This document shows, piece after piece, positions 3,802-55,570 of a stretch of DNA of 64,000 nucleotides. The notes beneath the pieces are model-generated. The model worked only from the letters and a program-made list of their open reading frames with translations. It searched no databases and was not told the DNA's origin. Position numbers and translations under genes: made by a program. Within the stretch, counting starts at the first letter, position 1. Every line of letters begins with the position of its first letter. This DNA comes from a bacterium (GTDB lineage: Bacteria; Bacteroidota; Bacteroidia; Bacteroidales; Bacteroidaceae): the NCBI GenBank assembly GCA_963657075.1, contig CAVKLF010000001.1:40749-104748 (forward strand). Reading direction: 5' to 3'.

Positions 3802-3830
3802 TAATTGAACAAATATTTACGACATCAAAG

Positions 3831-15195: not shown

Positions 15196-15277
15196 CAAAT
15201 ATACTAAAAAATCCCACACGATGACATACGACTTGCGCAACTTATCCAAAGCAATAGCGAAAAACACATTACTTTTG
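15196..15277. promoter_or_regulatory. Divergent promoter pair centred on the TTGCGCAACTTATCC motif
   Basis: Motif 15233-15247; + strand TACTTTTG 15270-15277; - strand TATATTTG 15196-15203, symmetric about the motif centre. Confidence 0.7.
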
Positions 15278-17238: not shown

Positions 17239-20200
17239 ATGTTTGACGAGCAAGACAGAAAGTATTTCTATGACGAGTTCAAAAACAATGGCTACCAAGT
17301 AGGCAGCTACGATGACTTCAAGAAGGACTTGAACAACAAGGAAGACCGTGACTGGTACTATAATGAAGCCAAGAACATGGGCTACGACGTGGGTACTCAG
17401 GCGGACTTCGACAAGATGGTGCTTGAAGCAGCTCCTTCTTCGCCAGCCCCTTCTGCATCTCCTTCACCTCAGAATACCAAGCAAGAGCAGCTGGTGCCAA
17501 AGACTGAGGCAAAGCAAGCCCAAAAGCCTTCGGCAACGATAGCGAAACCACAGGAGCAGCCTTCATCTGTCAATGAATCCCCCAGCCTTATCTCGCAAGC
17601 CCTTGGCATGATACCGAACGTAGATGCAGGCAATATTGGCAAAGAGCAAAGGATGGGCAGCATGCTTAACAACTTCTCTTTGGGAGGTAGCGAAGAGCAA
17701 CCACAACAGCAAGGCGAAAAAGCACCACAGCAAGCGCAAGTACAAGAGGCGACTACTTCTCCTACGGGAACAGCTTCAGCATCTCCAAGCATCGTGAATA
17801 ATGAGGGGCTGCTGGATGCCAAGCTATCCAACTATATCGAGAATTGGAAGCAGAGACCCGACCAAGAGAACGGCTATTTCCAAAACATGGTAGCCGATCT
17901 GTTGGCAGATGGCACAGCCAATACCAACGAGGAAGCAGTGAACATCGTGAAATCAGCTTTGGGCAGATATGCCAACCGTCAGGCGATGGACGCAACCAGC
18001 AAGGTAGTTTCTGCTTTGCCAGATGATACCGTGCAAGATGCCGAACGGAACATCGAGGCACAATGGTATAGCCATGGAGTGCAAGACAAATTGAAGCAGG
18101 AGGCGCAGTCGATGGGTATCAGCTACGATGACTATGTGGCTCAATTCCTGAAGCCTGCCATGGTACAGAATCTTGTGCAGAAATATGGTCAGAACTATCG
18201 CAACATGGCCGAGGATATAGCCACACGCTTGTATTCGCACGATGAGCACGTACAGGACAGACTGATGAACCAAGATATCAACGATGCCCTTGCCTCAGTT
18301 ATCGGCAAGTATGTGAGTCCATCCGTAGTAGACGAGTACAACAAGGCGCAAGAGGCAGGTGGCAAAGCTTTCAGCGAGGGTATGGAAGGCAGTCAGTATG
18401 TACCAGCCAATCTTCGTCTAGGCACGGCTATTGCTTCACAGTACGAGGCTAACCAAGCCAAAGACCCTAAGAAGGTGCTGAATACCTTGCAGAAGAAATT
18501 CGGCAAACTCTACCAGAACCAGCAGTTCTTGAACGACATAGCAGATGCAGCCTCGGGAGTGATGCAGCAATATAATATGCAAGGCGGTCTGAGTGGAGAC
18601 CCCAAGCAATTTCAGCCGATGATCAATGCCGCCCTGAAGAACGAGCTAGACCAGCTGGAGGTGAAGGGCATGATGCCGAAGGGCAGTGCCGAGTACATCA
18701 TGAAGACAGGACTTGGTAACACCATCGTGGGCAAGATAACACGCAAGGCCATGCAGACCGACTACCAGAACTGGCTGGAGGATATTGCCAACCAGCAGTA
18801 TCAGCCGGGTTTCTGGGAGAACGTGGCAAGCGGAGCGTTGACCTTTGCAGGTGATGCTTGGAGCTATTGGCTTCCCGGTGCAGTAGGCAGCAAGATTACC
18901 AAGAGTATGCTTGCCAAGGCCGAGGGTAGACTGGCTACCGACCTTTGGGCTAAGGGTATGGAGCGCAAGATGGCAGAGCGTGCCGCAAAGGTGCTCATAG
19001 GCAAGAGCAAGGGGATGGCGTTGAAGAGTGGTGCAGCCCATGGTGCAGCTACCTTTGGTGGTCAGTCGGCCATCTCGAAGCCTATTGATGAGGCGTACCA
19101 TACAGGTCAGTTTGATGAGGACGGCAAGATATACAAACCTTCTGTCGGCAAGATACTTGCAAACGCCTTGGGTGAGGTGGCCAAGCAGAGTGCCGTGGGT
19201 GCCATCATGCAAGGTGGTACGGTAGCCAATATGATAGGCAAGGGCAGGGGCTTGGCTACCAACATTCTCGCAGATGTAGGCGGCAAGGTAGTGGACTCCA
19301 GCATCATGACAGGTCAGCAGATGTTGGAGCGTATGGCGCATGACCCCAACTTCAAACCCACAGGCAAGGATGCAGCGGAGAGTTTCTTGGAGAGCATGGC
19401 AAACCTCACAGCCATCGGTTTGCCCGGCATGATGGGCAAGTATGCCCGATTCAAGGATGCTAGGGAATTTAACCGCAAGTACGACTTCAATGAGCAAGAT
19501 ATAGCCGAGCTGAAAAAGCACGGCTATGATGGTTTGCGTGATGCTTTTGAGAAGGTGGGCATCTATAACAAGGTTAACAAGGCAAGCGATGTACATGTGG
19601 AAGAATCCCCTAATCCGCAGTCGCATGGATGGAATACTGATCTTGCCGAAAATATAGGCATCAAGAAACTAGGCGAGCCGAAAAATGTAGATAGACCAAT
19701 AATAGAAGCACCCGAAGTTAAAGCTCTCACTAATGAGTATATGGACTTGTTGAGTGATAAGAGTGTGCCAGAGGTATTGAAGGCGAAGATGATGGCCGTG
19801 GTGGAAGGCAAGCGCCCTTCATCCTTTTCGCCAATGATCGACACCAATATCGAAGAGGCAGATGATGGTAAGGTTTATCTTGAAACTTTGAATAAGGATG
19901 GAGGCGTCATAGAACGTCTAGAGTACTCTTCACTTGACGAGGCTCAGAAGGCAGAGAAGAAGCTGGAATACGAGAAGACTCTAGGTTTGGCTTCTGTGCT
20001 GGAAGGTGAGTACCATAAGGAGTATCTTGACGACCATCTTTTTGACCTCTACAATCAAGCTGCCCAAAAGTACTATATGGGTGAGAAATTGAGCGATGAA
20101 GAAAAGGCGGCAGTCTATCTTCGTCAGAATGCAGTTGAAATAGGGGACATAATGAGAAAGCGGTTGAGTGGAACCTCACTTACAGCAGAAGAGCAGAAGC

Positions 20201-23200
20201 AAGTGGAAGCCTATCAGCATTTCTATTCTTCAGCAATGGAGAATAGTTCTGTGATGAGAGATTTTGTCAGCACATTCGAAGACTCGAATGATGTACCTCG
20301 TGGCACGCTTCGCAGAGCTTTGGAATCGAAGGACAAGAAATATGCGTCTTTGGTGGAATCATATCTTAAAGAGCTTTACAATTCCATCAAGCTAAAACGA
20401 GAAATGAGACAAACTGCCGAAGAACTGCACAAAACCTCAGAGGGTGAAAAGAATAATGAAGTAGAGGGTAAGGACGCTTCCACTGAAGTGACTCCTTCCG
20501 AAGAGGTTACGGAGACTCCTGCTGAAAAGCCAGCCAGTTCCCCCACTTCTTCTGATGTTCCGCCCACAGAACCACCTACACCACCAGTTGGAGGGGGAGC
20601 GTCTTCCGATGCAGAGGGCACACCTGCCGAGGGTAGCGGTGCAAGCAATGAGCCTAAGGTTGCAAGTAATGGAACTAATGTGGCAACCTCGGGGTCAAAT
20701 GTGGCAAGCTCAGAGCCAAATGTGGCAACCTCTGATGCCTACGTGATGGGGCAGAATGCGTACAAGAATGGAGATGCAGAAGGCTTGAAAGCTATCGACC
20801 ACAATTTCGATGTAGCAGAGCTTCGCTTACAGCGTGCCTTCAATGGTGACGAGAAGATGATAAGTCTTATCTATCGTGCCATAGAGGAAGGCAGAGATAT
20901 GGAAACGTTCGTACAGCAACGTGCAGGGCATCTCACACCAGCACAGAAAGATGCTATCCGTAAGTATGCGGAGGCGATGGATGCCAAGAAGGGCGTGATG
21001 GAAGCCGTAGACCATGCAGACGATGGCTATGGCGAGGCACTGACAGAACAGCTATGGCCTTATGCCACAGAAGACGGAAGCATAGTACCTGTTACCTTGC
21101 AGGACGGCAAGACCGCCTTCCTGAAGAAAGCCAACGAGTATGGTGGAGCATTCGTAGCCACTACCGACGAGAATGGGAAGCCAGTAGTAAGGCTGTCATC
21201 TTCGGCTCAAATCAAGGAAAAGGGAGAGCCAGTGCCATTCCAAGACTATGTGAACCAGTTGGCAGCTCAGAAGCATGAGGAGACCTTGCAGAGCTTTAAT
21301 ACCATGCTTGACGGCAGTGGGTTTAAACGTGGGGACATTGTATCTGTTTCTATGGAAGAAGGCCTTAAGCCTTCCGAGGTTAAAGTAGTAGGCTACACTG
21401 GTGATGGACGAATTGTATTAACAGACACAGATGTTGACATTAATTCAAAAATAGACCCAGATGATTTGGAATATCTTTCTAAAGATGAGTTTGACGCAAT
21501 GCGTACCAATGCGCTGCGCAATACCATCAATGCCGAACTGGATGCTGAGGACGCACAGCGAGCCAATGAGGAAACAGCCAAGGCAGAGGCAGAGAAACAA
21601 GAGCGATACAAGAAGGGAATTTGGGGATATACAACAGGTCAGCCCGACTATGCAGACCCTCAGACCGACCCAAAGGTAGCAGCTGAGTATCTGCAAGAGA
21701 CTTCTGGAGCAGACCGTAAGGATCTCTTCTCTAACATCGCAGCCGAAAAACAAAGTTTACAGACTCGCATCAAGCAGTTAAGAGAGCATATCGCCAACAA
21801 TGAGGAGTGGCTGTCTCTGAATGCCGACCTAGACCCGAAGAATGCCGAGACCAGAACCTTGGCAAACAAGCAGATGCAAGGTCAGATAACAGACCTACAA
21901 ACCCGTTTCGACAACTGGAACAAGATACGTTCTGCTGTGATGACACCGGAAGAGGCAGCAGCCATCAAGAAAGACCGTACCCAGAAGATAGCCGATGCAG
22001 GCGTAAACGAAGGCGACATCGTGCCTATCGAGGGACGAGAGGTAGCCGTGCTGAGTGATGAGGAACTCAAGAAGCAATATCCTACGATGGATGAGGCTAG
22101 CGACTATATTACCTCAGAGCGCAAGCGTATCTATCAAATACAGAGTGACGAGGTGCAGAACGAAATCGACGGTGTAGACAAGGTGCTGAAACAATATACC
22201 GATGGCGAGATAGACTTGGAGCCAGAGCAAATCAGGGAGTTGAACACCACCAAGGCGCAGTTGCAAGCACGCCAGCAGAACCTCACAGAATCAGCTAAGG
22301 ACTTGAAGACTCAGGCCGACAAGCTAAAGAAACTCTATCTTAAAGAGAACAAGGTAGCCCGAGCCAAGGCGATAGGAGACATGACTCCAGCCGGACAACG
22401 AGCCGTGAAGGTAGCGAATGCCATCGAGGGCGGCAATCTTTCTCTGCTGAACAGCATCTATGAGGAGGTAAGAGGTGCGACCGATTTCAACAGCACAGAG
22501 CCAGACACTCTGGAAGAGTATGTAGCCAGCAATATCGGACGTTTCTCTTTGAACTATGAAGGCAAGGAGAAGAATGGAGTGCTTTCTAATGGTCTCCAGC
22601 AAGAGACTGGATTGGGACGCAAGGACTTCAACAAGTTGCAGATACTGGCAAAGGCAGGAGAGGGCAAGACCGTAGCCGAGTTTGTTCATGGGCTCTACAA
22701 CGGGATGCCCGAGCATCTCAGGGCCATGGGATATAACGACACGAGCATCAGGAACGCATTCCTCGAACTCGTGCGCAGTGCCGAGAGCTATTCCGACCTA
22801 AAGAACTACACCCTGAACAACAAGGTGTATGACGCAGAACAGAAGATGCAAGAGTTGGAGCGACAAAAGGCAGAAATGATGGAAGCCGAGGATGAAGGTG
22901 CTGTAGACCAGCAAGGAAATGGCAAGAAATTTGCAGAAAGACTGCAAAATGCCATTGCTGAGACGGAAACAGAGCCTACGGAGGCTCAGAAGAAGGCAGG
23001 GAACTACAAGAAGGGACACTTGCAATTCGGTGGCTACGACTATACTGTAGAGACACCGAAGGGCGCAACACGCAGTGGCGTGGACGAGCAAGGCAATCCT
23101 TGGAGCGTGACCATGCACGACACCTATGGCTATATCAAGGGTAAGATAGGCGTTGATGGCGACCATATAGATATGTTTGTCAATGATGATGCCGACCTTG

Positions 23201-26200
23201 ATACTTTTGACGGCAACGTCTTTGTGGTAGACCAAGTGAACCCCGAGACTGGGGAGTTTGACGAACATAAGGTGATGTATGGCTATCCTTCTCAGGAGGC
23301 AGCGACAGAGGCTTATCTTGCCAACTACTCCAAGGGCTGGAAGGGAATTGGCAAGGTTACTTCTGTACCTAAGGCAACCTTCGACAAGTGGCTGGAGTCT
23401 TCCGACCGCAAGACCAAGCCGTTTGCCGACTATGCCATGATACAGAAGGCAAAAGCCCAGAAGGTAAGCTATAATCCCGACACCCATGAATGGACTGGTA
23501 TTCCCGAAGAGGTGATTACTGATGACAAGCCAAACAGGTATGGTGTGATTGATGGTTTTACCAAGAATCCTCGTATCTATGCTTATTACGACACAAAATC
23601 TCGTACCACATGGCTTCGTGTGGAGACCATAGACAACCAAGCAGAGACTCCAGAGCGTATCAATACCGTTTTGGAGAAGGAGGGCTATCAAGTTCACACC
23701 AATGGCGAGTCTTCCGGCTATGTGGACTTCGATAACTATGCAGATGCCGAGAAGTTTGCCAAGCATGTGGACGATGTAGAGAAGTATGTTCATTCACCGA
23801 AGGACAACCAAGGCAACCCGATAAACGAGGATGGCAGCTTAAAGCTGGGATCAATCAACTCAGTTGATGGGATTCCTTTTGAGCAAATCAAGCCAATAGG
23901 CACAGGCGCTTTCGGCAACATCTACAATCAGTTCAAGGGAAAGCCCGATGAAGCTGTGGCGTTTTTGATGCAACAGCAAGGCGGAGAAGCACTTGGTGCC
24001 CTATACCATGATGCAGTTGGTGACGTTGATTTGGTTTGGGGCAAGACAGGAACTAAGCATAGTGATGGCTTTGGCTTGGCAAAACTGGTAAAATATCATC
24101 CAGAGGTAGTTGCAAACTTGCAGGGCATTCTTAGCAGCATGAAGGTAGATAAGAGGTCTCCAAACCGTGTAAACCTCAGTAGTGACAAATACAAAGCTGG
24201 TATTCGTCTCGACTATGATGGAAAGAGTAAGACTTGGTTGCTGACTGCTTACGAAAAAGAAGTACCTTCGGATAGTAGCAAGACTACAGACACTGCCACC
24301 TCTTCGTTGAGTGGTGACACAGCTCTCACCCAATCCGAAGGTATTTCTTCCGCTGGCAAAGGTACGAATAATTCTGATAACTCGCAAGAAAAAGGGCAAG
24401 AAAATGCAGGAAATCTGCCATTTGGTGCTCAGATGAACATGGAAGACCTGCCGTTTAGCCGTGATGTGAAGGAGGTGAAGCCATCCGAGATGACGGAGTC
24501 TCAGAAGGTGGCTTATGATGCCGTGTCTACGATGCTTAAGAAGGCTGGAGTCCCGGTGAAGGTAATCAGCAATGAGGATATGGAGAAGGTGGCAGAGGCG
24601 CAGGATAATATTGTATTGTCAAGGCTGATGAATGACCCACGTCTTCGCTTTTACATCAAGACCCCCGAGCAGAAGAAGGCGGCAAATTCTGCTTACGACT
24701 GGGCTAGCCAAAATCGCCCTGACAAGCACAAGCAGTACGCCATCGTGAATATGGACAAACCGAACGAGATGCCGGAGTACTTCGAGAAGAAGGACTTGGC
24801 AGAGCGTGCCCGAAAGTATTACTCCAATGAATGGAAGGTAGGCAACTACAAGGCATTCGACCTCGACAAGCCGTTTGAGGAGCAAGTGAAGGACGTGAAG
24901 GGCAATGTGCCCGATGAGTTTGATCCATATAAGGCAGCTAAGGAGCATGCAAACAAGTTGGCTGACTTGAAAAATCAGCAAGAAAACCTTGTAAAACAGC
25001 GTGATGACTTGCAGAAGCAGTATAATGACTACGAGTATAAGCGCAACAAGACCTTCTTTGATGCCCTTATGGACTATAGGATAGCTCACCCAGGCGAGAA
25101 GGTTCCAGACTCATTCATCAAGGAGGCTACAGAGAAGTCTATTGGCAAAAATGACCCACGTCAAGAATTGAATCGCCAGATGGCTGAGATGAATGCCAAG
25201 ATTGCCGAAATCAGTAAGCAGTTGATAGCTAATGGTGAAAAAATCAGTTTCTTGAAAGGTAAGGGCACGGTGTATGGTTACACCGATGGCAAGGAGATCG
25301 TGCTGAACCAGGAGCATCTGAATCCTAACACACCCATCCACGAGTACCAGCATCTGTGGCGCACGGCAGCGAAGGCGAAGAATCCTGACCTTATAGCGCA
25401 TGGTGACAAACTTATCATGCAGACCTCTCTGTTTGTCGACTTGAAGAAGGATCCTAATTATAAGCATCTGAGCAACGAGCAGCTTTGCGATGAGGCTTTT
25501 TCTCAACTGACTGGTGAGGACGGAGCCAAGATCTTGGAGGATATGGCTAAGGAAGCCATTAAGGAGAATCCGCTGGACACAGCCAAGGAACTCTCAGTGA
25601 TCAACAAGTTGAAGGACTGGTTGAAGAAGTTCTGGTACTGGACACTCGACACCTTCACCAAGTGGAAGCCCGAGGACATCAGGAAAATGACCTTGGAGGA
25701 CATTCGCAACCTTGTGTTGAGGGACTTGGCGAAGGGCGTTGACCCACGCGCAAAGTTGAATGAGAGTGCAGCCAAGGAAACGCGGGAGCTCAAAAAGGCC
25801 AATGACGCTTTCAACCAGAGATTGGATGAGCTGGCGAAGAATCCCAACCAAAAGGACAAGGTTCTTCGCTTGGGACGTTCCAGCACCTTCTTGAAAGACG
25901 GCGGCATTGCCGATGCGGACATAGAGCTGGACTACGACAAGCTGATGCGCAAATCCAAGCAGGGATATGTGCATGAGCATCCTTTTGATGTGGCTGACGT
26001 AAACGACCTTCCCTTGGCTGTCGCATATCCGATTTCTGTGTTTGACAACACGAACGGCAAGAATGGCGGTCAGGTTATATTGACAGAATTGAAGAAAGAG
26101 GACAGGAACTTCATTGTTGCTGTTCGGACGGAGAGCCAAAACAGAAAAGGCGGTGTTGTCTTGAAGGTGAACAAAATAGTGACTCTGTTCCCGAAAGATG

Positions 26201-29200
26201 CCAAAGGCGTAATCAATTGGTTTAACCAAGGCAAGGCTACTAATATCGACAAAGAAAAAGCCCTCCACTTTATCGAGGCCCTCCAGAACCATCCTGGAAC
26301 CACAATAACAAGTGAGGAGCTTAATTCTGCTGCAAATGTAATCAATTCTTTTGAAACCGCCAAGGAAAATGGCGAAAAAATCTCATTGAAGGATGACAAG
26401 ACCCTTGTGGGCGTACATAACATCACGGAGGAGAAGTTGAGAAAAGCCTTGAAGCTGGGCGGCTTTGCCAATCCAAGCGTGGCGGTCATCGACACAGGCA
26501 AGAGTGCGCACAATAGCTTTGGCGAGATTTCCTTCATCGCTCCCTCCGCACTCGTTGACAAGCGTACTGGCGGCACTGCCGGTACATGGACAACCGATGC
26601 CTACACTCAGCGTTATCCGTCCGTGGAGCGGCAAATGAGCGATAAGGGCTATGAGAATTTCAAAAAATGGGTTGATGGGTTGGACTATCCCGACTCTGCC
26701 AAGATGGAAATCGAGAGACAGGCGAAGGATGCGCTTGAAGACAACAGAGACCCTGCTTGGGAATTGATGTACTTGAAAGAAAAAGGCATTGACATCAAGG
26801 GATATGACAGCAAGGTAAACTACCTTTGGCAAGACATCATAGAGGAGCATCCTTCTGTCGAAGACATACTGGAGAGCATGAAGAGCGACCCAAAGCTGAA
26901 CGAAGACGTGACGAAACTCGCCAAGTCCGAGATAACCGCTCCTACTTGGAGGAACATTTCGCAAGAGGTAAGTGCGCAGATGTCTGAGGAATTAGGCAGA
27001 AGAGTTTCGACCATCAGCCCAAAGGTAAGAGCCAAGACAAAGGAGATTTTCGAGCGTGACTATGCCCCAAGTCTGTTTAACAAGGATGGTTCGCCCAAGA
27101 AAGCGGATGTTAAGAAGGTGGTGGCGAAGATGGTGCAGCAATATGAAGACACCAAGCAATACAGCTTCTATAAGTCAAAGGTTCGGGCAAGTTCATACGT
27201 TCATAACAATGGGCTATATGCCGACTACATCAGATGGCAGGAGAACAAGCTTGATGAGTTTGGAACGAAGAACAGACTGTTCCGTGGTTTCAAGAACGAT
27301 GGAACACGCAAGTATGTTCCTGAGACCCTCGAAAACGTTTCGAAAGCCATGAGGGATGATGCCGATGGGCAGACGAACGGCAGCGAGTACACCACCTTCG
27401 GAAGCTTCATAGCGAAGTTGGCTGACCGTGTAGATAGCACTGACGAGATGCGTGCCAACAAGGACAAGCTATCCTCCAATGAGGACAAGCAGGACTTCTA
27501 CGAGAAATGGGAGGAAGTATATTACGACCTAGCCAAGTTCTTGTATAATGATGTGGCGGCTGGCGAGCAACGCCTTCACGACATTGTGACCAAGAGCGAC
27601 CCTAAGAGATACGCCAAGAAGGAGTATGGCATTACGCTGACTCCTGCCTTTATGAAGAAGTTGGATGCGCTCAAAAAGGCGGTTCGTGAGGAGTTGAAGA
27701 GCAACTATTTCGAGACGAAGTTTGAACGTCCTGTTCATCTGGACGAGTTTGCTGCTGCCGTTGTGCCTAAGGACTTGGGCGCAGATGTGCGCAAGGGATT
27801 GGAGCAGTCGGGCTTGCGCCTGTACGACTATGATGCCAAGAAGGAGGGCGACCGCCAACGTGCTTTCGATAAGGCTATCCATGGTGGCGACAACATCCGT
27901 TTCATGTTTGCAGGTGAGAGGGGAGCTGCCAATGCCGATGAGGCTGAGGAGAAGACCTATCGCATGGACAACTTGAAGGTGGCAGAGGAGATGGAACGAG
28001 GCGACAAGGATGCCAAGGCCATCAAGCTTGCCACTGGATGGGAGCGTGGCGCAGACGGCAAGTGGAGGTATGAGATGCCCGATGCCAAGATAAAGGACAC
28101 CATAGACATAGGCGGTGGACATATCGTGAAACGTTATGAGGAGGATATGCTATGGACTGACGGAAAGCTTGGCAAAGTCGTAGATGCCCCCGAGCTGTTC
28201 AAGGCTTATCCGCAGTTGAAGGACATCAAGCTTAGTACGGATGTCATCATGAACGATATGCCGAGTAATGGTGCTTACGACCACAATACGAAGACTATCA
28301 CCATTCATGCGGATGAGTTGAAGTATCTCAATTCCATTCTCAATCACGAGATTCAGCATGCCATTCAGGACATTGAAGGTTTCGCCCAAGGTGGAAGCCA
28401 GAGACAGGCAGCAACAGCTGCGTTCCAGCAGAAATTGAAAGAAGACTATATTGAAGCCATCGACCGCCTTGACGAGGTCTGCAAGAAAAACGGCATTTCT
28501 CGTTTAGCCGCTTTGGACGAAGACTTTGACGCAAGTGACAATACGGAATTAAAAGATGCCATTTCTTCTTTCCGTGCAGCGCAGAAAAAAATACTCGCAA
28601 GCCCCTATGACCGTTATCTTTCCCTTGCTGGCGAGGTTGAGGCTCGAAATGTGCAGAAGCGTCTGGGGATGACCGACGAGCAGCGCAGAAACACTCTTGC
28701 TTCCGAGACGGAGGACGTGAACCGGGATGAGCAGATCGTGATGAATGGGGATGGTGCAAGCTACAGCATTGTGGAAGACCCGAAGACGATTGAGAAGCTG
28801 GATAAGGAGGAGACAGTGAAGGTCTATCGAGCCATGCAGTTGGGAGAGGACGGCAAGCTATATCCACCGATGGCTGCGAAGGTGAAGGGCAAGTTTGTGC
28901 AACCTATCGAGCTGGGCAAGTGGGAACAGGCGGACGAGCGGCCAGACCTTGCCGACAAGAACGGTCTCTTTACCTTGAACAAGGGCAATGGCAAGACCTT
29001 GAAGGCTACTTACAACCCTTACCTTCACACTTCTCGCACTCCTTTGAACGATCAGTTCAGCGAGGCACAGAGTCGCCCCAACATCGTGACCGTGGAGGTG
29101 GAAGTTCCCAAGAGCGAGTTGACCAGCGGCTACCGGGCAGAGAAAGCCAAGGATGCCGTGGGCGAGGTAGAGTGGAAGGCTGGAATCATTCAAGGTCAGC

Positions 29201-32200
29201 TGACAGGCAAGAGAAAGGTGATACTCTCCCGATGGGACAAACCTGTGCGCATCGTGCCGGACAGCGAGGTGGCTGATGTCATCGTGAACGATATGTTCAA
29301 GGACAAGAAGGTGGTGATGCCTACCAATGTGGTTACTCCAAGTCTCAGAAAAGAGTTGGAGAAGCGTGGTGTGCCCTTCGTGGAGACCGATAACAGAGGA
29401 AGAATCGTAGGAGGTAAGAATGATGGGGTGCATTATTCCAAGGTGTATGGCAAGAAGGCTACTTCGAAGTTGGCTTTGAATGAAAATCCTGACACCATCG
29501 GAGCAAAGGAGCTGAGAATCCAAAAGCTGCGTGATAGCGAACCAATAAGAATCTCTGGAACGGAAATTCCTTCATCTGAGGATTTGAAGCAATACAAGAA
29601 GAATGCCTTGGAGTATGGAAAGACCTTACAGGGTACTTATACCAACAAGGATGATGGTACTACCATCCAGCTGCAACGTGGGCGTAAAAATGGCGGTGTG
29701 CGTGAGGTGTTACAGCACAACTACAAGGATATTCCCCATTTGCAAAGTGTTGCTGCGATACCTCAAATTATAGAGAACAGCATCTACATTGACAGCAGGG
29801 AGAACCAAGACAGAGCAAAGAACCCTGATGTGTCGGAGTACCGCTATTATGTCTGTGGGCTGAAGATAGGTAAGGAAGACTATACAGTGAGGTCTGTTGT
29901 TGCTGTGGACAAGAATGACAATCGCTATTATGACCATAAACTGACAGATATAGAAAAAGGAAAGCTTCTCGATTACTTGAATCAAGAAGCCCTTTATAAT
30001 GTCGGTTTTGGCACAACGCCCAGCACGAAGCTTACTACCGATATTTTCATTGGCAAAGATACGGTTTTAAAATCAATCCTCCAAACAAATAAGCAAGAAA
30101 TTGCAAAAAATGTGCAAAATACCGTCAATCGGCTTGGTGGTGCTGAGGCTAACGTATATACCTCTTTGGATGATGTTCCTGAGGAATATCTGTCGGAGGT
30201 GGAGCAGGGAGCCAAGGGATGGTACGACCCGGCTACTCATACCGTACACGTCTATCTACCCAACTGTGCCGATGCCAACGATGCCCAGCGCACTGTCTTC
30301 CACGAGAAGATAGGGCATGAGGGAATGGAGGTGCTGCTTGGTGGAGAGAGTGGCGTGAGGAAGTTTGCCAACTTCGTGTATAAGTCAGTGGGGAAGAAGT
30401 TGAGGGGAAAGATACTCGACTTCGCCAACAAGTACGACCCCGACTGGAAGAATCCCGACCGCATGAACGTGGGCACGCAGGAGTATATCGCCCATCTTGC
30501 CGAGGAAGGGCCACTGACAGCCGAGGACTTCTCGCTTTGGACGAAGATCAAGCACTACCTCATCAAGGCTCTCAAGAAACTTGGCATCCGTGTGCCCGGT
30601 CTGCTGAACGACAAAGACCTTCGCTATTACCTGATGAAGGCAGGAAAGGCTCTGCACGTCTGGGACAATATGCCGAAGGAGAAGCAGGAGGCGATGATGG
30701 CACAGGCAAGCAATGCCGAAATCAAGGACGCACTGAAGGATGGTGCAGGAAAGGGCAAACCAAGGCAAAAGAAAGGTGAGAGTGCCATCCAGTATATGAA
30801 GCGAGTGATGGAATGGAAGCGGTGGAAGGAAGCCCGAGAGGACGAGAACGACCCCGAGCCACCTCAGTTCTATGACTTCGATAAGGATGTGGAAGGCAAG
30901 AAGGAATGGGAGCAGCTCAACAAGGATTGGAGAAGCCGTCACGGTATAAGTGAAGAGCTATATGCTGCAATACATAATCGAGATACAAATCTTGTAGATG
31001 CAGTTCCATATATTGTTGAGGTTCCCAAACGTTTGGTAGAGGTTGCAGATGAGATAAATGGTACTGACTATTTCAGAAAGCACAACCTTGCTGTAAGTTC
31101 AAAAGATTTGGAAGCAGTTTTGCCCTTAATCGATGAATTGCGAAATGGCAATGAAGATGTAAAGATAGGTGATGACGGACGTGTCGTAGACAAAGATTCC
31201 GTCGCTAGCCAAATAGCTAGGCGAATAAACTCTATGCACTTGTTGGATGCTGATTATGTTCCGTTAAAGTCCTCAGACATTTTGCAAGAGCAGGTGCATT
31301 CATTGATAGAAAAGGATGTCTTTCCCACTGGCAAGAATAAGGAAACAATCAATAAGTCTAGATTGCCTATGAGAGAAGAGGGTGAGACTGATGATGATTA
31401 TGCAAAACGCATTAAGGAATACGAGAAGTGGAATGCAGCTGTAAACGACAAGGATGACCCTATGCCCGATATGTTCTCCTTCGAGAAGGAGAGGCAGAAG
31501 GCGGCAAGCAAGAAGTATGAGGACTGGCTGGCAAGGCATGAACTGCTGGAGCAGGAGCAAGCCGATTTGGACTTGTACGAGGGCAAGATATATCCTGCCG
31601 AGACCAACCCTGAGGCTGATGCTCTGGAGCAGCGAGTGATGCAAGACCTAGCAGAGGTGACCAGCACAGACGTGAGCAAGGAGGGAGCAGCCCGAACCGT
31701 GAAGCATGCCGTGATCCACAGACGCAAGAATATGGAAGAGGCGAGTGCCGACGATGCCATCTACATCAATGACGTGAAGAACAGAATCGAGAAGATGGCA
31801 GATAGTGGTGTGTTCGACAAGTTGCTTGCCGACTATCAGGGCAAGCCCAACAAGGCAGAAAAATTGGCTGAGGCTATACCTTATATAATAGAAGCCCCCA
31901 GAAGGTTGCGTGACATTGCCCACGACCTGAACAATACAGGTGCTTTCGACAAGGGACATATCCATATCCAGCCAAGCGATGTGGAAGCTATCCAGCCTTT
32001 CGTGAGCGACTTGGCATCAGAGACCTACAAGAAGCATATCGAAATAAAGAATGGCGAGGAGGTGGAAGTGTATGATAATCCACAAGCCGTGAGCGAGTTG
32101 GCCAGCAAGATGGCACAAGCTATCAATGCGAACCACCAAGGCGAGGAAGGGTTTGTGCCCATTGACGGCACGGACATCCTGAGCGAGCACGTCTTGCCGC

Positions 32201-34968
32201 TTGTAAGGCAGAAGGTTGTGCCAGTGGGTATCGACTACCAGAACATCACGCCCGAGATGCAAGCTACCCTTGACTCCATCCGAGACTGGTATAACTACAC
32301 CTACGACTGGTTGAAGGACAACCACACCTTGCGTGAGGACACAGGCTTCAATGCCGACTACGTAAACCATATTTGGGATAAGGAGAAGTCGGACAAGCAA
32401 GCGTACGCCATGTATGTAGAGAACCGCCAGCGCACCAAGAGTCCCAACGAGAAGCCGAGAACCATCAGTACCTTGATGGAGGGTATCAGCGTAGGACTCG
32501 TGCCGAAGACCACCGACATCACCAAGATGATGGCGTACTACAGCCGTAGCAACATCGAAGCATGGGTGAACAAGACGATGCTGCAAGAGTTGAGTGGGCT
32601 GAACGTGATAGAGCGAAACGAGGAAGGAGAAATCGTATCCTCAGACCCACTGCTTTCTTCTGTGGCACCTATCAACTTGGAGCAGTACAGATACTTCGAG
32701 ATACCCGGCGTTGGTCCGGTATGGGTGTATAATGTATCGCCCAAGGAGGTGAAGGTGAAGAATCCTATCACAGACAAGGAGAAAACACTGTATAGAGAGG
32801 CAAGTGCAGGAGACAGGTTTGGTGTGGTGTTCGACACCTACCAGTCATCCCCTTTCTGGAAGGCATTCGACACCTTGGCATCCAGTGCCAAGAAGTTGGA
32901 GCTTGGTTTCAGCGGATTCCATGCAGGAGCATTGACCGAGGTGTATATGGTGCAGAATGCGATAGAGTTTGGCCCTAAGAAAGCACTCGCCTACTTTATG
33001 AAGTACATCTTTGGTGATACAGCTAAGAACCACGAACTGCCTTGCTTTGCCAATCCTGAGGACTTTCAAGAGGCCGCAAGCCATCTGGTGAAGTTTGGAG
33101 CGACCAACGACTATGCGGCAGCAGACGTGCAGAATATGTTCGACAACTTCCGTGACAGTATGATGAAGATACAAGAGAAGTTGGGTAACGGAAATGTGCT
33201 GTCGAAGGCTGGTGCTACAGCTTCAATCCCATTTAAGGTAGCATCACAGATGCTTTCGCTTGTGAACAAAGGTATGGACCGGGCACTGTGGGACTTCCTG
33301 CATGATGGACTAAAACTCGCTACCTATCGTATGCGAGCCGAGAAAACCAAGGAACGTGCCAAGAAATATGGCTGGACAGCGGAGCAACTAAGCAAAGCCC
33401 TTGACGAGGACGGACAGTTTGTGAACGATATGTTTGGAGGCCAGCACTGGGACGTTTTGGGAGCCAGCCAAAAGAGAATCAAAAAAGCAGGAAGATGGCT
33501 GCTTTCCCCCGACTGGAATGCCTCCACTACACGCCACTTCTTGGCACTGACAGGATATGGCTCTGTATGGAACGAGGCAACGATGGAGAACTTCAGAGAC
33601 TACTATAAGCGTCTATGGGGCGCAGCCAGAGGTAAGGGCGAGCTGAAACCCGAAGACTGGGGACGCACGACGAGACAACTTTCGTCCCTGCTATGCTACG
33701 GACTTGGTTTTATGGTATTCTACGAGGCTTTTGCCAATGGCGTCAATGCCGCCTTCCGTGCCATGGACGAGGAGAAGGAGCGAGAGAAGGCAGAGGAAAT
33801 CCGCAAGACGAACCCCGACTACAAGAGTCCATACGAGCTTGCCTATCCTGACGGAATGAAGTGGTACGACTACTTGATGCGAGGGAATACCCTTGGTCAG
33901 CAGAGCAAGATCTTCGTGGGAAGATATGCCGATGGCACAGAGATGTATATCCGACATGGCAAGCAATTTAGGGAGATACCCGAGTATTTCTTCAATGAAA
34001 AGGGTGAGTTTGAATTTCCTGGTCCGATGGTGCAGCGAATGATAGGCAAGGCCAACCCAATAGTGAGAATGATACACGATGATATAAACTATCTGAGCGA
34101 CTTCCAGGCCAGCCATGCCGACCAAGAACTGCAACGCAAGTACGCAAAGCTTGTTGGGAACGAGCCTTTGGGCAAGGGCATCGGACTGCTCCACAAGAAT
34201 GCTCTCTACTGGGCGCCATTCTTAATACCGAGCCAAGAGAATAAGGAGTTCAAGGCAGCGGACTTCTTCTTCCCTTCATCCAAAGGATTCTCTCCTTGGA
34301 AGGCGCAGAGTTATTTCAAGGATTTCATCCTGAGCGGAGACATGGAAGGTGTGATGATGACCTACAATAGCTGTGAGCGTAACGGCATAGATCCCGAAGC
34401 TCAGATTGCAGCCGCCATTACTTCTGTGAAGGCATTGGAGAGTGCAGAGATGAAGGACGGTGTTACTTCCTTGCAGATAGCCAGCGAGCGATTTGATGAG
34501 GCCAAGAGTATCACGGAGAAGAAGAAAATGCGCCAGAAGATGAAGAAGTTCCTCTCTCAGAGCGAGTACAAGGTATTCACCCAGAAAGAGGCTCTGGACA
34601 TGGTGCAGAGTTACCTGAATGGCGAGGATGACTTAGAGGAGTTACAGAAGGCTGAAAACAAATACTTGATGAAGGCGAAATCAGAGGATGTGACAGAGGA
34701 CTGGAGAATCCAATCAGTATGGAACGGAACGATGGACACCTACCAAGAGTATCAACGCTTGAAGGACGAGGATAAGGTGAAGGCAAACGCCTTCAAAAAC
34801 AACAAGACCAACAAACGGCTGTTTGAGGCAAGGAAGGCAATCTCTGCCGCCAAGAAAAAGATGAATAAAGCCAAGAAAGAAATGGACGGTAAGAACGATG
34901 CCGCCAAGCTGGTTGAAATCCGCACGACCAGAAAGAAGCTCTTGGAAACGCTGAACGGAATGGAATAG
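17239..34968 (+). CDS. Giant polyvalent phage protein, 5909 aa (InPase, PBECR-type nuclease, MuF-C-like, LPD23, LPD3-like, zincin metallopeptidase motifs)
   Basis: TEAQKKAGNYKKGH...DGDHID...FDEHK (~22970-23430); GDVDLVWG...WLLTAYE (~23910-24255); HEYQH; MuF-C-like (~25800-26260); ATGWERGADGKWRYE; HEIQH; YYDHKLT (~29520-29960); HEKIGH. Confidence 0.85.
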   Translation: MFDEQDRKYFYDEFKNNGYQVGSYDDFKKDLNNKEDRDWYYNEAKNMGYDVGTQADFDKMVLEAAPSSPAPSASPSPQNTKQEQLVPKTEAKQAQKPSATIAKPQEQPSSVNESPSLISQALGMIPNVDAGNIGKEQRMGSMLNNFSLGGSEEQPQQQGEKAPQQAQVQEATTSPTGTASASPSIVNNEGLLDAKLSNYIENWKQRPDQENGYFQNMVADLLADGTANTNEEAVNIVKSALGRYANRQAMDATSKVVSALPDDTVQDAERNIEAQWYSHGVQDKLKQEAQSMGISYDDYVAQFLKPAMVQNLVQKYGQNYRNMAEDIATRLYSHDEHVQDRLMNQDINDALASVIGKYVSPSVVDEYNKAQEAGGKAFSEGMEGSQYVPANLRLGTAIASQYEANQAKDPKKVLNTLQKKFGKLYQNQQFLNDIADAASGVMQQYNMQGGLSGDPKQFQPMINAALKNELDQLEVKGMMPKGSAEYIMKTGLGNTIVGKITRKAMQTDYQNWLEDIANQQYQPGFWENVASGALTFAGDAWSYWLPGAVGSKITKSMLAKAEGRLATDLWAKGMERKMAERAAKVLIGKSKGMALKSGAAHGAATFGGQSAISKPIDEAYHTGQFDEDGKIYKPSVGKILANALGEVAKQSAVGAIMQGGTVANMIGKGRGLATNILADVGGKVVDSSIMTGQQMLERMAHDPNFKPTGKDAAESFLESMANLTAIGLPGMMGKYARFKDAREFNRKYDFNEQDIAELKKHGYDGLRDAFEKVGIYNKVNKASDVHVEESPNPQSHGWNTDLAENIGIKKLGEPKNVDRPIIEAPEVKALTNEYMDLLSDKSVPEVLKAKMMAVVEGKRPSSFSPMIDTNIEEADDGKVYLETLNKDGGVIERLEYSSLDEAQKAEKKLEYEKTLGLASVLEGEYHKEYLDDHLFDLYNQAAQKYYMGEKLSDEEKAAVYLRQNAVEIGDIMRKRLSGTSLTAEEQKQVEAYQHFYSSAMENSSVMRDFVSTFEDSNDVPRGTLRRALESKDKKYASLVESYLKELYNSIKLKREMRQTAEELHKTSEGEKNNEVEGKDASTEVTPSEEVTETPAEKPASSPTSSDVPPTEPPTPPVGGGASSDAEGTPAEGSGASNEPKVASNGTNVATSGSNVASSEPNVATSDAYVMGQNAYKNGDAEGLKAIDHNFDVAELRLQRAFNGDEKMISLIYRAIEEGRDMETFVQQRAGHLTPAQKDAIRKYAEAMDAKKGVMEAVDHADDGYGEALTEQLWPYATEDGSIVPVTLQDGKTAFLKKANEYGGAFVATTDENGKPVVRLSSSAQIKEKGEPVPFQDYVNQLAAQKHEETLQSFNTMLDGSGFKRGDIVSVSMEEGLKPSEVKVVGYTGDGRIVLTDTDVDINSKIDPDDLEYLSKDEFDAMRTNALRNTINAELDAEDAQRANEETAKAEAEKQERYKKGIWGYTTGQPDYADPQTDPKVAAEYLQETSGADRKDLFSNIAAEKQSLQTRIKQLREHIANNEEWLSLNADLDPKNAETRTLANKQMQGQITDLQTRFDNWNKIRSAVMTPEEAAAIKKDRTQKIADAGVNEGDIVPIEGREVAVLSDEELKKQYPTMDEASDYITSERKRIYQIQSDEVQNEIDGVDKVLKQYTDGEIDLEPEQIRELNTTKAQLQARQQNLTESAKDLKTQADKLKKLYLKENKVARAKAIGDMTPAGQRAVKVANAIEGGNLSLLNSIYEEVRGATDFNSTEPDTLEEYVASNIGRFSLNYEGKEKNGVLSNGLQQETGLGRKDFNKLQILAKAGEGKTVAEFVHGLYNGMPEHLRAMGYNDTSIRNAFLELVRSAESYSDLKNYTLNNKVYDAEQKMQELERQKAEMMEAEDEGAVDQQGNGKKFAERLQNAIAETETEPTEAQKKAGNYKKGHLQFGGYDYTVETPKGATRSGVDEQGNPWSVTMHDTYGYIKGKIGVDGDHIDMFVNDDADLDTFDGNVFVVDQVNPETGEFDEHKVMYGYPSQEAATEAYLANYSKGWKGIGKVTSVPKATFDKWLESSDRKTKPFADYAMIQKAKAQKVSYNPDTHEWTGIPEEVITDDKPNRYGVIDGFTKNPRIYAYYDTKSRTTWLRVETIDNQAETPERINTVLEKEGYQVHTNGESSGYVDFDNYADAEKFAKHVDDVEKYVHSPKDNQGNPINEDGSLKLGSINSVDGIPFEQIKPIGTGAFGNIYNQFKGKPDEAVAFLMQQQGGEALGALYHDAVGDVDLVWGKTGTKHSDGFGLAKLVKYHPEVVANLQGILSSMKVDKRSPNRVNLSSDKYKAGIRLDYDGKSKTWLLTAYEKEVPSDSSKTTDTATSSLSGDTALTQSEGISSAGKGTNNSDNSQEKGQENAGNLPFGAQMNMEDLPFSRDVKEVKPSEMTESQKVAYDAVSTMLKKAGVPVKVISNEDMEKVAEAQDNIVLSRLMNDPRLRFYIKTPEQKKAANSAYDWASQNRPDKHKQYAIVNMDKPNEMPEYFEKKDLAERARKYYSNEWKVGNYKAFDLDKPFEEQVKDVKGNVPDEFDPYKAAKEHANKLADLKNQQENLVKQRDDLQKQYNDYEYKRNKTFFDALMDYRIAHPGEKVPDSFIKEATEKSIGKNDPRQELNRQMAEMNAKIAEISKQLIANGEKISFLKGKGTVYGYTDGKEIVLNQEHLNPNTPIHEYQHLWRTAAKAKNPDLIAHGDKLIMQTSLFVDLKKDPNYKHLSNEQLCDEAFSQLTGEDGAKILEDMAKEAIKENPLDTAKELSVINKLKDWLKKFWYWTLDTFTKWKPEDIRKMTLEDIRNLVLRDLAKGVDPRAKLNESAAKETRELKKANDAFNQRLDELAKNPNQKDKVLRLGRSSTFLKDGGIADADIELDYDKLMRKSKQGYVHEHPFDVADVNDLPLAVAYPISVFDNTNGKNGGQVILTELKKEDRNFIVAVRTESQNRKGGVVLKVNKIVTLFPKDAKGVINWFNQGKATNIDKEKALHFIEALQNHPGTTITSEELNSAANVINSFETAKENGEKISLKDDKTLVGVHNITEEKLRKALKLGGFANPSVAVIDTGKSAHNSFGEISFIAPSALVDKRTGGTAGTWTTDAYTQRYPSVERQMSDKGYENFKKWVDGLDYPDSAKMEIERQAKDALEDNRDPAWELMYLKEKGIDIKGYDSKVNYLWQDIIEEHPSVEDILESMKSDPKLNEDVTKLAKSEITAPTWRNISQEVSAQMSEELGRRVSTISPKVRAKTKEIFERDYAPSLFNKDGSPKKADVKKVVAKMVQQYEDTKQYSFYKSKVRASSYVHNNGLYADYIRWQENKLDEFGTKNRLFRGFKNDGTRKYVPETLENVSKAMRDDADGQTNGSEYTTFGSFIAKLADRVDSTDEMRANKDKLSSNEDKQDFYEKWEEVYYDLAKFLYNDVAAGEQRLHDIVTKSDPKRYAKKEYGITLTPAFMKKLDALKKAVREELKSNYFETKFERPVHLDEFAAAVVPKDLGADVRKGLEQSGLRLYDYDAKKEGDRQRAFDKAIHGGDNIRFMFAGERGAANADEAEEKTYRMDNLKVAEEMERGDKDAKAIKLATGWERGADGKWRYEMPDAKIKDTIDIGGGHIVKRYEEDMLWTDGKLGKVVDAPELFKAYPQLKDIKLSTDVIMNDMPSNGAYDHNTKTITIHADELKYLNSILNHEIQHAIQDIEGFAQGGSQRQAATAAFQQKLKEDYIEAIDRLDEVCKKNGISRLAALDEDFDASDNTELKDAISSFRAAQKKILASPYDRYLSLAGEVEARNVQKRLGMTDEQRRNTLASETEDVNRDEQIVMNGDGASYSIVEDPKTIEKLDKEETVKVYRAMQLGEDGKLYPPMAAKVKGKFVQPIELGKWEQADERPDLADKNGLFTLNKGNGKTLKATYNPYLHTSRTPLNDQFSEAQSRPNIVTVEVEVPKSELTSGYRAEKAKDAVGEVEWKAGIIQGQLTGKRKVILSRWDKPVRIVPDSEVADVIVNDMFKDKKVVMPTNVVTPSLRKELEKRGVPFVETDNRGRIVGGKNDGVHYSKVYGKKATSKLALNENPDTIGAKELRIQKLRDSEPIRISGTEIPSSEDLKQYKKNALEYGKTLQGTYTNKDDGTTIQLQRGRKNGGVREVLQHNYKDIPHLQSVAAIPQIIENSIYIDSRENQDRAKNPDVSEYRYYVCGLKIGKEDYTVRSVVAVDKNDNRYYDHKLTDIEKGKLLDYLNQEALYNVGFGTTPSTKLTTDIFIGKDTVLKSILQTNKQEIAKNVQNTVNRLGGAEANVYTSLDDVPEEYLSEVEQGAKGWYDPATHTVHVYLPNCADANDAQRTVFHEKIGHEGMEVLLGGESGVRKFANFVYKSVGKKLRGKILDFANKYDPDWKNPDRMNVGTQEYIAHLAEEGPLTAEDFSLWTKIKHYLIKALKKLGIRVPGLLNDKDLRYYLMKAGKALHVWDNMPKEKQEAMMAQASNAEIKDALKDGAGKGKPRQKKGESAIQYMKRVMEWKRWKEAREDENDPEPPQFYDFDKDVEGKKEWEQLNKDWRSRHGISEELYAAIHNRDTNLVDAVPYIVEVPKRLVEVADEINGTDYFRKHNLAVSSKDLEAVLPLIDELRNGNEDVKIGDDGRVVDKDSVASQIARRINSMHLLDADYVPLKSSDILQEQVHSLIEKDVFPTGKNKETINKSRLPMREEGETDDDYAKRIKEYEKWNAAVNDKDDPMPDMFSFEKERQKAASKKYEDWLARHELLEQEQADLDLYEGKIYPAETNPEADALEQRVMQDLAEVTSTDVSKEGAARTVKHAVIHRRKNMEEASADDAIYINDVKNRIEKMADSGVFDKLLADYQGKPNKAEKLAEAIPYIIEAPRRLRDIAHDLNNTGAFDKGHIHIQPSDVEAIQPFVSDLASETYKKHIEIKNGEEVEVYDNPQAVSELASKMAQAINANHQGEEGFVPIDGTDILSEHVLPLVRQKVVPVGIDYQNITPEMQATLDSIRDWYNYTYDWLKDNHTLREDTGFNADYVNHIWDKEKSDKQAYAMYVENRQRTKSPNEKPRTISTLMEGISVGLVPKTTDITKMMAYYSRSNIEAWVNKTMLQELSGLNVIERNEEGEIVSSDPLLSSVAPINLEQYRYFEIPGVGPVWVYNVSPKEVKVKNPITDKEKTLYREASAGDRFGVVFDTYQSSPFWKAFDTLASSAKKLELGFSGFHAGALTEVYMVQNAIEFGPKKALAYFMKYIFGDTAKNHELPCFANPEDFQEAASHLVKFGATNDYAAADVQNMFDNFRDSMMKIQEKLGNGNVLSKAGATASIPFKVASQMLSLVNKGMDRALWDFLHDGLKLATYRMRAEKTKERAKKYGWTAEQLSKALDEDGQFVNDMFGGQHWDVLGASQKRIKKAGRWLLSPDWNASTTRHFLALTGYGSVWNEATMENFRDYYKRLWGAARGKGELKPEDWGRTTRQLSSLLCYGLGFMVFYEAFANGVNAAFRAMDEEKEREKAEEIRKTNPDYKSPYELAYPDGMKWYDYLMRGNTLGQQSKIFVGRYADGTEMYIRHGKQFREIPEYFFNEKGEFEFPGPMVQRMIGKANPIVRMIHDDINYLSDFQASHADQELQRKYAKLVGNEPLGKGIGLLHKNALYWAPFLIPSQENKEFKAADFFFPSSKGFSPWKAQSYFKDFILSGDMEGVMMTYNSCERNGIDPEAQIAAAITSVKALESAEMKDGVTSLQIASERFDEAKSITEKKKMRQKMKKFLSQSEYKVFTQKEALDMVQSYLNGEDDLEELQKAENKYLMKAKSEDVTEDWRIQSVWNGTMDTYQEYQRLKDEDKVKANAFKNNKTNKRLFEARKAISAAKKKMNKAKKEMDGKNDAAKLVEIRTTRKKLLETLNGME
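20641..20732 (+). repeat. 21-bp (7-aa) tandem repeat inside the giant gene
   Basis: ASNEPKV-ASNGTNV-ATSGSNV-ASSEPNV-ATS; AATGTGGCAA recurs every 21 nt. Confidence 0.7.
24254..24350 (-). ncRNA. Putative antisense structured sRNA 1 (after the PBECR domain)
   Basis: - strand TTG-N20-TACCTTTG promoter (24357-24387); 17-bp closing stem with one mismatch 24257-24273/24333-24349, internal hairpins, U tract. Confidence 0.45.
26251..26326 (-). ncRNA. Putative antisense structured sRNA 2 (after the MuF-C-like domain)
   Basis: - strand TTG-N20-TACATTTG (26333-26363); bulged stem AAGCCCTCCACTT/AAGTGAGGAGCTT, inner TCCAG/CTGGA hairpin, U tract. Confidence 0.4.
29953..30047 (-). ncRNA. Putative antisense structured sRNA 3 (after the LPD3-like domain)
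   Basis: - strand consensus TTTG-N20-TATCTTTG (30054-30085); stem 29998-30006/30037-30045, then hairpin GCTTCT..AGAAGC (29964-29990) and U tract. Confidence 0.45.
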
Positions 34969-35178: not shown

Positions 35179-35260
35179 CAAAAATAAGGATAAAAAAGCG
35201 AAACCATTGGATAAGTTGCGCAACTTATCCATAAAAATAGGCAAAAAAGGTGTATTTTTG
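35179..35260. promoter_or_regulatory. Perfect 24-bp palindrome TGGATAAGTTGCGCAACTTATCCA with symmetric divergent -7 boxes
   Basis: Palindrome 35208-35231; TATTTTTG on + at 35253-35260 and on - at 35179-35186. Confidence 0.8.
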
Positions 35261-41147: not shown

Positions 41148-41186
41148 AACTTATCAAAAAGTAATGCGAAATTTTCGTTAATTTTG
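41148..41186 (+). promoter_or_regulatory. Capsid operon promoter: half-site AACTTATCA + 22 nt + TAATTTTG
   Basis: Same spacing as the other motif-linked promoters; a divergent TAATTTTG lies on the - strand at 41124-41131. Confidence 0.6.
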
Positions 41187-55523: not shown

Positions 55524-55570
55524 ACTTGCGCAACTTATCCATACTTTTCGGGAAGGATGCGTTAAATTTG
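55524..55570 (+). promoter_or_regulatory. Lysis operon promoter: ACTTGCGCAACTTATCC + 22 nt + TAAATTTG
   Basis: Motif 55524-55540, -7 box 55563-55570. Confidence 0.7.

Follow-up and report, generated by a model that had tools for sequence, protein, structure and literature searches.

Type I toxin–antitoxin systems can use an antisense RNA that overlaps the toxin gene convergently, as in TxpA/RatA, and interbacterial toxin systems leave orphan immunity arrays, in which immunity protein genes are kept without the toxin and clustered in their hosts. Type III systems, with the members ToxIN, CptIN and TenpIN, and among which AbiF and AvcID have also been placed, carry tandem RNA repeats and a terminator 5' of the toxin in one operon (PMC12283969; this and the other articles are cited here from part of their text). 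For domains of phage polyvalent proteins, virion delivery and ribonuclease (RNase) activity have been predicted (PMC5512222). Here we describe a stretch of 64,000 nucleotides (nt) from a Bacteroidaceae genome (contig CAVKLF010000001.1, positions 40,749 to 104,748; hereafter the window), in which a giant polyvalent-protein gene of a prophage carries three antisense promoters, each followed by a predicted folded RNA and each placed just 3' of a predicted nuclease-like domain. We refer to promoter and RNA together as a cassette and favour, at a probability of about 0.6, the reading that the RNAs are antitoxins or decoys that would bind the cognate virion-delivered nuclease.

Antisense promoters 3' of BECR-type domains

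The gene, its domains (positions in amino acids, aa) and the three cassettes lie in the window as follows.

17239..34968, plus strand: giant polyvalent-protein gene, 5,909 aa, in the prophage virion region, directly 5' of the portal gene
23998..24261, plus strand: PBECR1 domain, aa 2254–2341 (Pfam PF18809, E 6e-10)
24254..24353, minus strand: RNA 1, about 98 nt, after PBECR1 (ends predicted)
24357..24387, minus strand: promoter 1, TTG-N20-TACCTTTG
25954..26262, plus strand: MuF-C domain, aa 2906–3008 (Pfam PF18819, MuF_C, E 8.6e-14)
26251..26329, minus strand: RNA 2, about 75 nt, a rod hairpin after MuF-C (ends predicted)
26333..26363, minus strand: promoter 2, TTG-N20-TACATTTG
26389..26919, plus strand: PBECR5 domain, aa 3051–3227 (Pfam)
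29578..29931, plus strand: LPD3 domain, aa 4114–4231 (Pfam), with a predicted fold nearest BECR ribonucleases and an invariant His and Ser
29954..30050, minus strand: RNA 3, about 95 nt, after LPD3 (ends predicted)
30054..30085, minus strand: promoter 3, TTTG-N20-TATCTTTG

All three minus-strand promoters, with their 20-nt spacers, lie where a first-pass annotation of the sequence had placed them, and Pfam agrees with the modules that it had named by eye as PBECR-type, MuF-C-like and LPD3-like (PBECR1, MuF_C and LPD3). Its further statement that the plus-strand frame stays open across the cassettes also holds, with the linkers SAGKGTNNS, SAANVINS and IGKDTVLKS present in the 17239–34968 open reading frame (ORF), and the three domains end 24–41 codons ahead of the respective -7 box. 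The motif TTG-N20-TAnnTTTG, which we take to be the Bacteroidota promoter consensus, is supported by the host genome, because the spacers of that genome peak at 19–20 nt (137 and 280, vs 20–56 at other spacings). The window contains 51 TAnnTTTG boxes (24 minus, 27 plus), and only these three have TTG at a 19–21-nt spacer. In the giant gene, 0.13 full promoters were expected and 3 were seen (P ~0.001, 2,000 synonymous-codon shuffles); the -7 box alone was not enriched (9 seen vs 6.3 expected, P 0.18), recurring by chance as the annotation had cautioned.

The full promoter was kept in 29 of 33 clusters of close homologues and across two reading frames; the DNA motif is therefore constant while the peptide varies. 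Among 80 related giant genes, selected on InPase and with loci that are near-identical kin, spacer-20 motifs numbered 88 antisense versus 1 sense, and the 91 matches at spacer 19–20 formed 8 clusters, comprising PBECR2 (42), PBECR3 (15, and 1 more whose RNA is the same), MuF_C (4), two related modules without a Pfam family (26) and one unrelated cluster (3). At spacer 22, another 40 antisense matches pile up in these genes (L094–L173), probably a single conserved site among kin. When 48 long frames from 45 diverse loci were examined, antisense spacers of 19 and 20 nt occurred 36 and 49 times, versus 3–7 at others, and 26 of the 35 scanned segments 5' of promoters matched a BECR-type family, two of them weakly.

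The reverse test started from the domains. The full promoter stood 10–200 nt after 57 of 62 BECR-type domains (MuF_C 18/19, PBECR2 19/20, PBECR3 5/5, LPD13 4/6, LPD3 5/5, unnamed module 6/7), a count biased in favour of these domains because some profile seeds were drawn from promoter-adjacent segments, and after none of the 290 controls, made up of InPase, LPD23, three HExxH segments and a segment that was guessed to be ART-like. Of 2,580 random positions, 69 had it. The promoters are thus tied to domain ends rather than scattered at random relative to them, the outcome on which the annotation had staked its proposal. LPD3 loci found by protein alone had the promoter in 34 of 41 cases and the variant TTG-17-TAnnnT in 6 of the remaining 7. 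A module without a Pfam family (L094:12686–13195, L097:12515–13024) is followed by the promoter and a multi-hairpin RNA in 6 of 7 copies and may represent a BECR family without a name; more families of this kind might be found through the cassette. A zeta-toxin domain at L195:9189–9728 is also followed by an antisense promoter and hairpins, a single case that may be chance or a non-BECR cassette.

In a survey of phyla other than Bacillota, the -7 box was present 3' of PBECR1 in 34 of 41 Bacteroidota-titled loci (control 3%) versus 1 of 44 from other phyla, where 24 of these 44 loci had TTG-16/18-TAnnnT (control 3.7%); a further 21, viral or of doubtful title, were tallied separately from both host groups. 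The -7 box is the discriminator here, since the sigma70 pattern matches Bacteroidota promoters too. In hosts outside Bacteroidota, the predicted promoter after PBECR1 is instead of the sigma70 type. For other families, the numbers of non-Bacteroidota domains followed by a sigma70-like site were MuF_C 2/2, PBECR3 7/9, LPD3 2/2 and PBECR2 0/1 (control domains 1/12, random positions 141/1,470); among Helicobacteraceae, PBECR3 had one in 5 of 6 cases. Helicobacter phage phiHP33 has promoter-like sites 3' of both PBECR3 and PBECR1, and in Rhizobium phage RHph_N28_2 the RNA of a solo PBECR3 gene lies in the intergenic gap past the stop codon, convergent with the gene. Genome sampling for MuF_C gave 3 of 401 in each of two draws, the second of which gave the Bacteroidota contig of the first, and MuF-C had no match in plasmids. 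Four loci with non-Bacteroidota titles (L190, L186, L215 and L221) carry Bacteroidota-type promoters; their titles or binning may be off, and a class draw around the L190 genome gave a Bacteroidota contig.

Elsewhere in the window, the intergenic motif ACTTATCCA occurs at 15240–15277, 35223–35260, 41149–41186 and 55533–55570 (plus) and at 35179–35216 (minus), followed some 21 nt later by a TAnnTTT(G/T)G box. The motif precedes several prophage operons and is possibly a phage-specific upstream element on the Bacteroidota -7 box.

Family-specific RNA folds and their transfer

The annotation had described each promoter as followed by a folded region ending in a U tract, and a folded RNA of 75–100 nt was predicted at all three. 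RNA 1 is closed by helix P1 (24334–24351 with 24254–24272) and its hairpins P2 and P4 have 13-nt loops (24314–24326 and 24281–24293) that kiss at both ends; RNA 2 has a 7-nt apical loop (26287–26293); RNA 3 combines a twin-hairpin three-way junction (30002–30041) with a terminator-like hairpin (29954–29993). The 3' ends of RNAs 1 and 2 are U-rich. A simple terminator scan picks cassette 3 only, cassettes 1 and 2 finishing with the closing helix and U-rich tract, and a Rho-independent terminator scan stayed at chance level (19 vs 18.4). Folding z-scores of RNAs 1, 2 and 3 were -4.2, -3.4 and -2.6. With 14 shuffles per window, the cassettes ranked 16th, 11th and 2nd among the 706 windows of the minus strand; because folding alone fails to single them out, the case depends on homologues. 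Minus-strand windows 19194–19293 and 22794–23268 of the giant gene also fold strongly (z to -7.2, 14 shuffles), with no matching promoter. At the gathering score, Rfam had no match in the window, and what it returned for sets of 6 and 9 homologous loci was at chance level.

The PBECR1 RNA has a closing helix P1, hairpins P2 and P4, an optional P3, and two 13-nt loops that pair at both ends. In 51 sequences, taken from 72 of 106 that match the loop pattern, P2, P4 and the two loop–loop helices were 94.9% paired, compared with 70.5% in shuffles (0/500) and 29–48% in slid registers, relatedness among the sequences inflating this and every other shuffle test of RNA pairing; the loop–loop pairs alone were 99% paired over 306 cells. 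Since these 51 had been chosen by pattern, the kissing pairs were also tested on held-out loci with a search model built without them. It matched 21 of 30 loci (22 hits), in which kissing cells were paired in 120 of 132 cases versus 98.3 ± 3.5 after shuffling (0/5,000); some of these copies have loop 2 reduced to the kissing bases only. In the loop codons of loci selected on the peptide alone, Asp is GAC in 66 of 66 and Ala GCT in 66 of 66, against the 43% and 23% seen in the domains.

The MuF-C RNA forms a rod, with a stem of 5 bp and a loop of 7 nt, and was 87.3% paired in 29 sequences (0/500 shuffles). An E. coli phage, Mariprofundus and Bacteroidota have this loop in common, with the frame differing between them. 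Pseudoknot-type tertiary pairing is present in the PBECR1 RNA as the two loop–loop helices, and none was seen in the MuF-C rod. Strict anticodon mimicry was considered and dropped, the apical loops having no fixed U33 by eye. For the three-way junction of the LPD3 RNA in the window, 14 sequences chosen by eye showed 96.8% pairing. Stems of the PBECR1, MuF-C and LPD3 RNAs covary, where the annotation had accepted that an absence of compensatory changes would undo its proposal. Judged by these alignments, each domain family has its own predicted RNA fold with compensatory changes, and the rule of one fold per nuclease is not strict. LPD3 cassettes in L091, L092, L272 and L284 carry two different RNA modules in tandem, which suggests that RNA modules may be gained and replaced apart from the domain.

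Domain and RNA also travel together. When loci share one module and differ in the next, identity ends 40–69 nt away from where the -7 box starts, just beyond the promoter, in 482 of 485 pairs, which stem from few independent alleles. Domain, RNA and predicted promoter are, on this comparison, swapped as one unit, and the joint movement foreseen by the annotation is borne out. A single Prevotella gene (L192) has 11 promoters, ten after a BECR-type domain and one, at 3809, about 100 codons past PBECR1. A model of the PBECR1 RNA gave 47 hits in 784 kb, all on the minus strand and all near PBECR1 (42 within 30 nt, 1 at a distance of 73 nt, 3 in loci earlier dropped as duplicate or short, and 1 following a degenerate domain), and in the host genome a single hit, the window copy.

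Copies also occur apart from the domain. A scan of viral contigs that started from the RNA yielded 53 hits, 41 of them distinct: 29 beside PBECR1, 4 without stems and counted as chance, and 8 intact orphans (58.6–101 bits) with no PBECR1 inside the 700-nt flank, of which 5 lie in long frames, 1 is intergenic and 1 sits between DUF29 and DUF2442 genes. In 151 relatives of the host, 4 genomes had the PBECR1 RNA, and in a proteobacterial class draw 1 of 151 did, the centre of the draw only. Besides the window and one prophage copy, three non-coding loci in two genomes of the host genus carry the RNA without PBECR1, inside several hundred bases of stacked hairpins. Their kissing bases are retained, and a chain module is about 80% identical to a phage cassette over 84 nt. 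In two of the three chains another module weakly matches MuF-C RNAs (E 0.001–0.009; a second one 6e-5), and two of the loci are near transpeptidase genes. The chains (L419, L420 and L421, about 1300–1900, RNA strand) share further modules that match no domain family.

Possible roles of the RNAs

On the protein side, LPD3 and LPD13 were left unassigned in PMC5512222; both behave like BECR modules here. The LPD3 structure model (predicted local distance difference test score, pLDDT, 92; 47 for the single-sequence version) matched CdiA-CT structures 7m5f (Z 5.7, root-mean-square deviation 3.5, 93 aligned) and 6cp9 (Z 5.0); lower rows included BrnT, colicin D, MqsR and RelE, interspersed with unrelated folds, and the best Foldseek E was 3e-3. 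The invariant residues are His73 and Ser83. PDB sequence searches with LPD3 showed nothing, and an LPD3-versus-PBECR1 profile comparison gave a probability of 0.15. As modelled, LPD3 likely has the BECR fold. PBECR1 retains His, Arg and Thr.

In the antitoxin or decoy reading, a cassette would be a gene for a small RNA, written antisense into the linker 3' of a BECR-fold ribonuclease domain. Host polymerase would transcribe the RNA both in the lysogen and in lytic growth, and the folded RNA would bind the cognate domain as a substrate-like decoy. Such binding could silence the nuclease while virion protein is made and shield the lysogen when related phages inject the same nuclease; a domain entering a naive cell would find no RNA and be active. 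With an RNA gene the size of a linker, a new nuclease could join the polyprotein and bring its immunity along, without a further gene for that purpose. Orphans and host chains would be immunity kept in reserve.

Several findings speak for this reading: one RNA per BECR-type domain (57/62), 11 cassettes in the Prevotella gene, fixed loop bases, orphan copies, and gp30 of phage Mu, whose MuF-C has been termed inactive (PMC5512222) and which, in this one case, has no evident cassette by eye. Other findings weigh against it. The annotation had assigned a small RNA to each toxic module; this holds for PBECR1, MuF-C and LPD3, which are followed by a conserved structured RNA, and fails for PBECR5, which had no cassette in the reverse test (0/5; its extension 0/8) and in the window is followed by a lone -7 box at 27020 without TTG. 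Nine of the 30 held-out PBECR1 loci did not match the kissing-loop model and may have other folds, LPD3 RNAs are modular with several different folds, the structural match of LPD3 is middling (Z 5.7), and the domains are only predicted RNases (PMC5512222). To these are added the perfect complementarity of all embedded RNAs to the mRNA and the similarity of the host chain module to a phage cassette (~80%).

Because of these last two points, antisense action keeps a share of the probability. The RNAs would then be type I-like silencers that pair with the giant mRNA at the nuclease exits and cause decay or a translation block, and host chains would silence incoming phage mRNA. The cis complementarity arises by construction, the resemblance of the chain module to the cassette fits, and the RNA of the Rhizobium phage, convergent at the 3' end of its gene, is placed like those of type I loci. 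Nevertheless, a single antisense RNA would be enough per mRNA, yet one gene has 11; helices between the 5' and 3' ends close the RNAs and the PBECR1 loops are held in a kissing structure; and the bases of the loops stay the same in different phyla and reading frames. Of a decoy and a cis-antisense RNA, the evidence leans to a protein-binding decoy (locked kissing loops, family-specific folds, orphans), because a cis-antisense RNA needs no fixed loops, tertiary fold or copy per domain, and we consider the silencer unlikely.

One-to-one pairing and family-specific folds also fit if the RNA is cargo, cofactor or preferred substrate of the domain, for example a virion-packaged tRNA-like decoy against host defence nucleases or a molecule that licenses activity. 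The 5-bp stem and 7-nt loop of the MuF-C RNA have the size of an anticodon arm, and RNA binding has been suggested for inactive MuF-C (PMC5512222). However, the apical loops lack the tRNA U33 pattern by eye, no free, variable, guide-like segment was seen in the PBECR1 RNA, and domain-free modules in host genomes suit protection better than help to the phage. We regard this role, too, as unlikely.

It is very improbable that the structure acts in the sense mRNA, as a processing, pausing or cleavage site after each domain, with incidental promoters. Watson–Crick covariation is strand-symmetric and would allow it, but minus-strand G-U pairs outnumber A-C (74 to 8 and 60 to 14), U tracts lie at the minus-strand 3' end, and the promoter is on the minus strand and varies with host type. 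That the cassettes are chance or a by-product of linker peptide composition, as the chance-level -7 box and equally well-folding windows of the gene might suggest, has next to no probability left: the promoter is retained in different reading frames, synonymous sites are fixed and the RNA also occurs outside coding sequence, and promoter–domain coupling, host matching and the held-out kissing pairs have already largely refuted it.

Extending the antitoxin or decoy reading, we tentatively propose, with rather less than even confidence, a pan-bacterial RNA immunity against virion-injected ribonucleases, in which at least six BECR-type families would carry linker-overprinted RNA inhibitor genes with host-type promoters, shuffled together with the domain, and bacteria and rival phages would capture orphans and build multi-specificity chains. 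Polyvalent proteins contain predicted nucleases without a visible immunity gene, and a cognate RNA per family would explain how the producer survives; the RNA would also provide a ligand with which to study the binding, structure and substrates of these domains. If the proposal is true, RNA antitoxins extend to the BECR fold, a non-coding gene layer is hidden within phage coding sequence, LPD3 and LPD13 join the nuclease class, host RNA chains are a new defence, and a function is offered for antisense RNAs of H. pylori.

Comparison with known systems

As a large multidomain PBECR/LPD/InPase protein among virion genes, the window protein belongs to the phage polyvalent proteins (PMC5512222). 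It shares their mosaicism of modules, with InPase (aa 1915–2053), PBECR1, MuF-C, PBECR5, LPD23 and LPD3, and their place by portal and terminase; integrase (13165), portal (35278) and terminase (37997) were found among 32 scanned ORFs with PHROGs. At 52398–53669 of the window, a reverse transcriptase (phrog_1423) adjoins tail-fibre-like genes and is diversity-generating-retroelement-like by context. The available text of PMC5512222 does not contain the word 'antisense' and names no RNA partner. Full-text searches confined to openly accessible articles (PMC11980606, PMC11879866 and PMC3221604 included) found none that describes RNAs associated with PBECR, MuF-C or LPD3, and the outline and term-searched text of the Minerva preprint do not mention these domains.

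An experimental parallel may exist in H. pylori, where two antisense RNAs per gene, HPnc2240/2250 at HP0488 and HPnc5970/6000 at HP1116, are given as Northern-validated (PMC8322730). HP1116 is the orthologue of JHP1044 (PMC549213), a PBECR-mosaic protein (PMC5512222). PMC8322730, in the parts cited, lists these RNAs without a function or a link to domains. That they are these cassettes is a lead only, because 46% of the genes of H. pylori have antisense starts (PMC8322730).

With type I systems the cassettes share an antisense RNA, complementary to the mRNA, that has its own promoter on the 3' side of a predicted toxic unit. They differ in that the nuclease domain lies inside a 5,909-aa protein, many RNAs can correspond to one mRNA, and the tertiary structure of the loops is conserved. 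The host chains are like orphan immunity arrays in their toxin-free clustering, but their modules are RNAs in a non-coding chain and not protein genes. Type III systems are closest in kind: a predicted endoribonuclease and a structured RNA with pseudoknot-type pairing, found in the PBECR1 RNA only, occur together on mobile elements. In contrast to the type III layout, the RNA lies downstream, on the opposite strand, within coding sequence and under its own promoter; it is a single unit by folding and alignment, with no repeat finder run, rather than a tandem repeat; and the putative toxin is a predicted BECR-fold domain embedded in a probable virion polyprotein. As predicted here, the cassettes would resemble type III toxin–antitoxin systems in their proposed working but depart from their layout.

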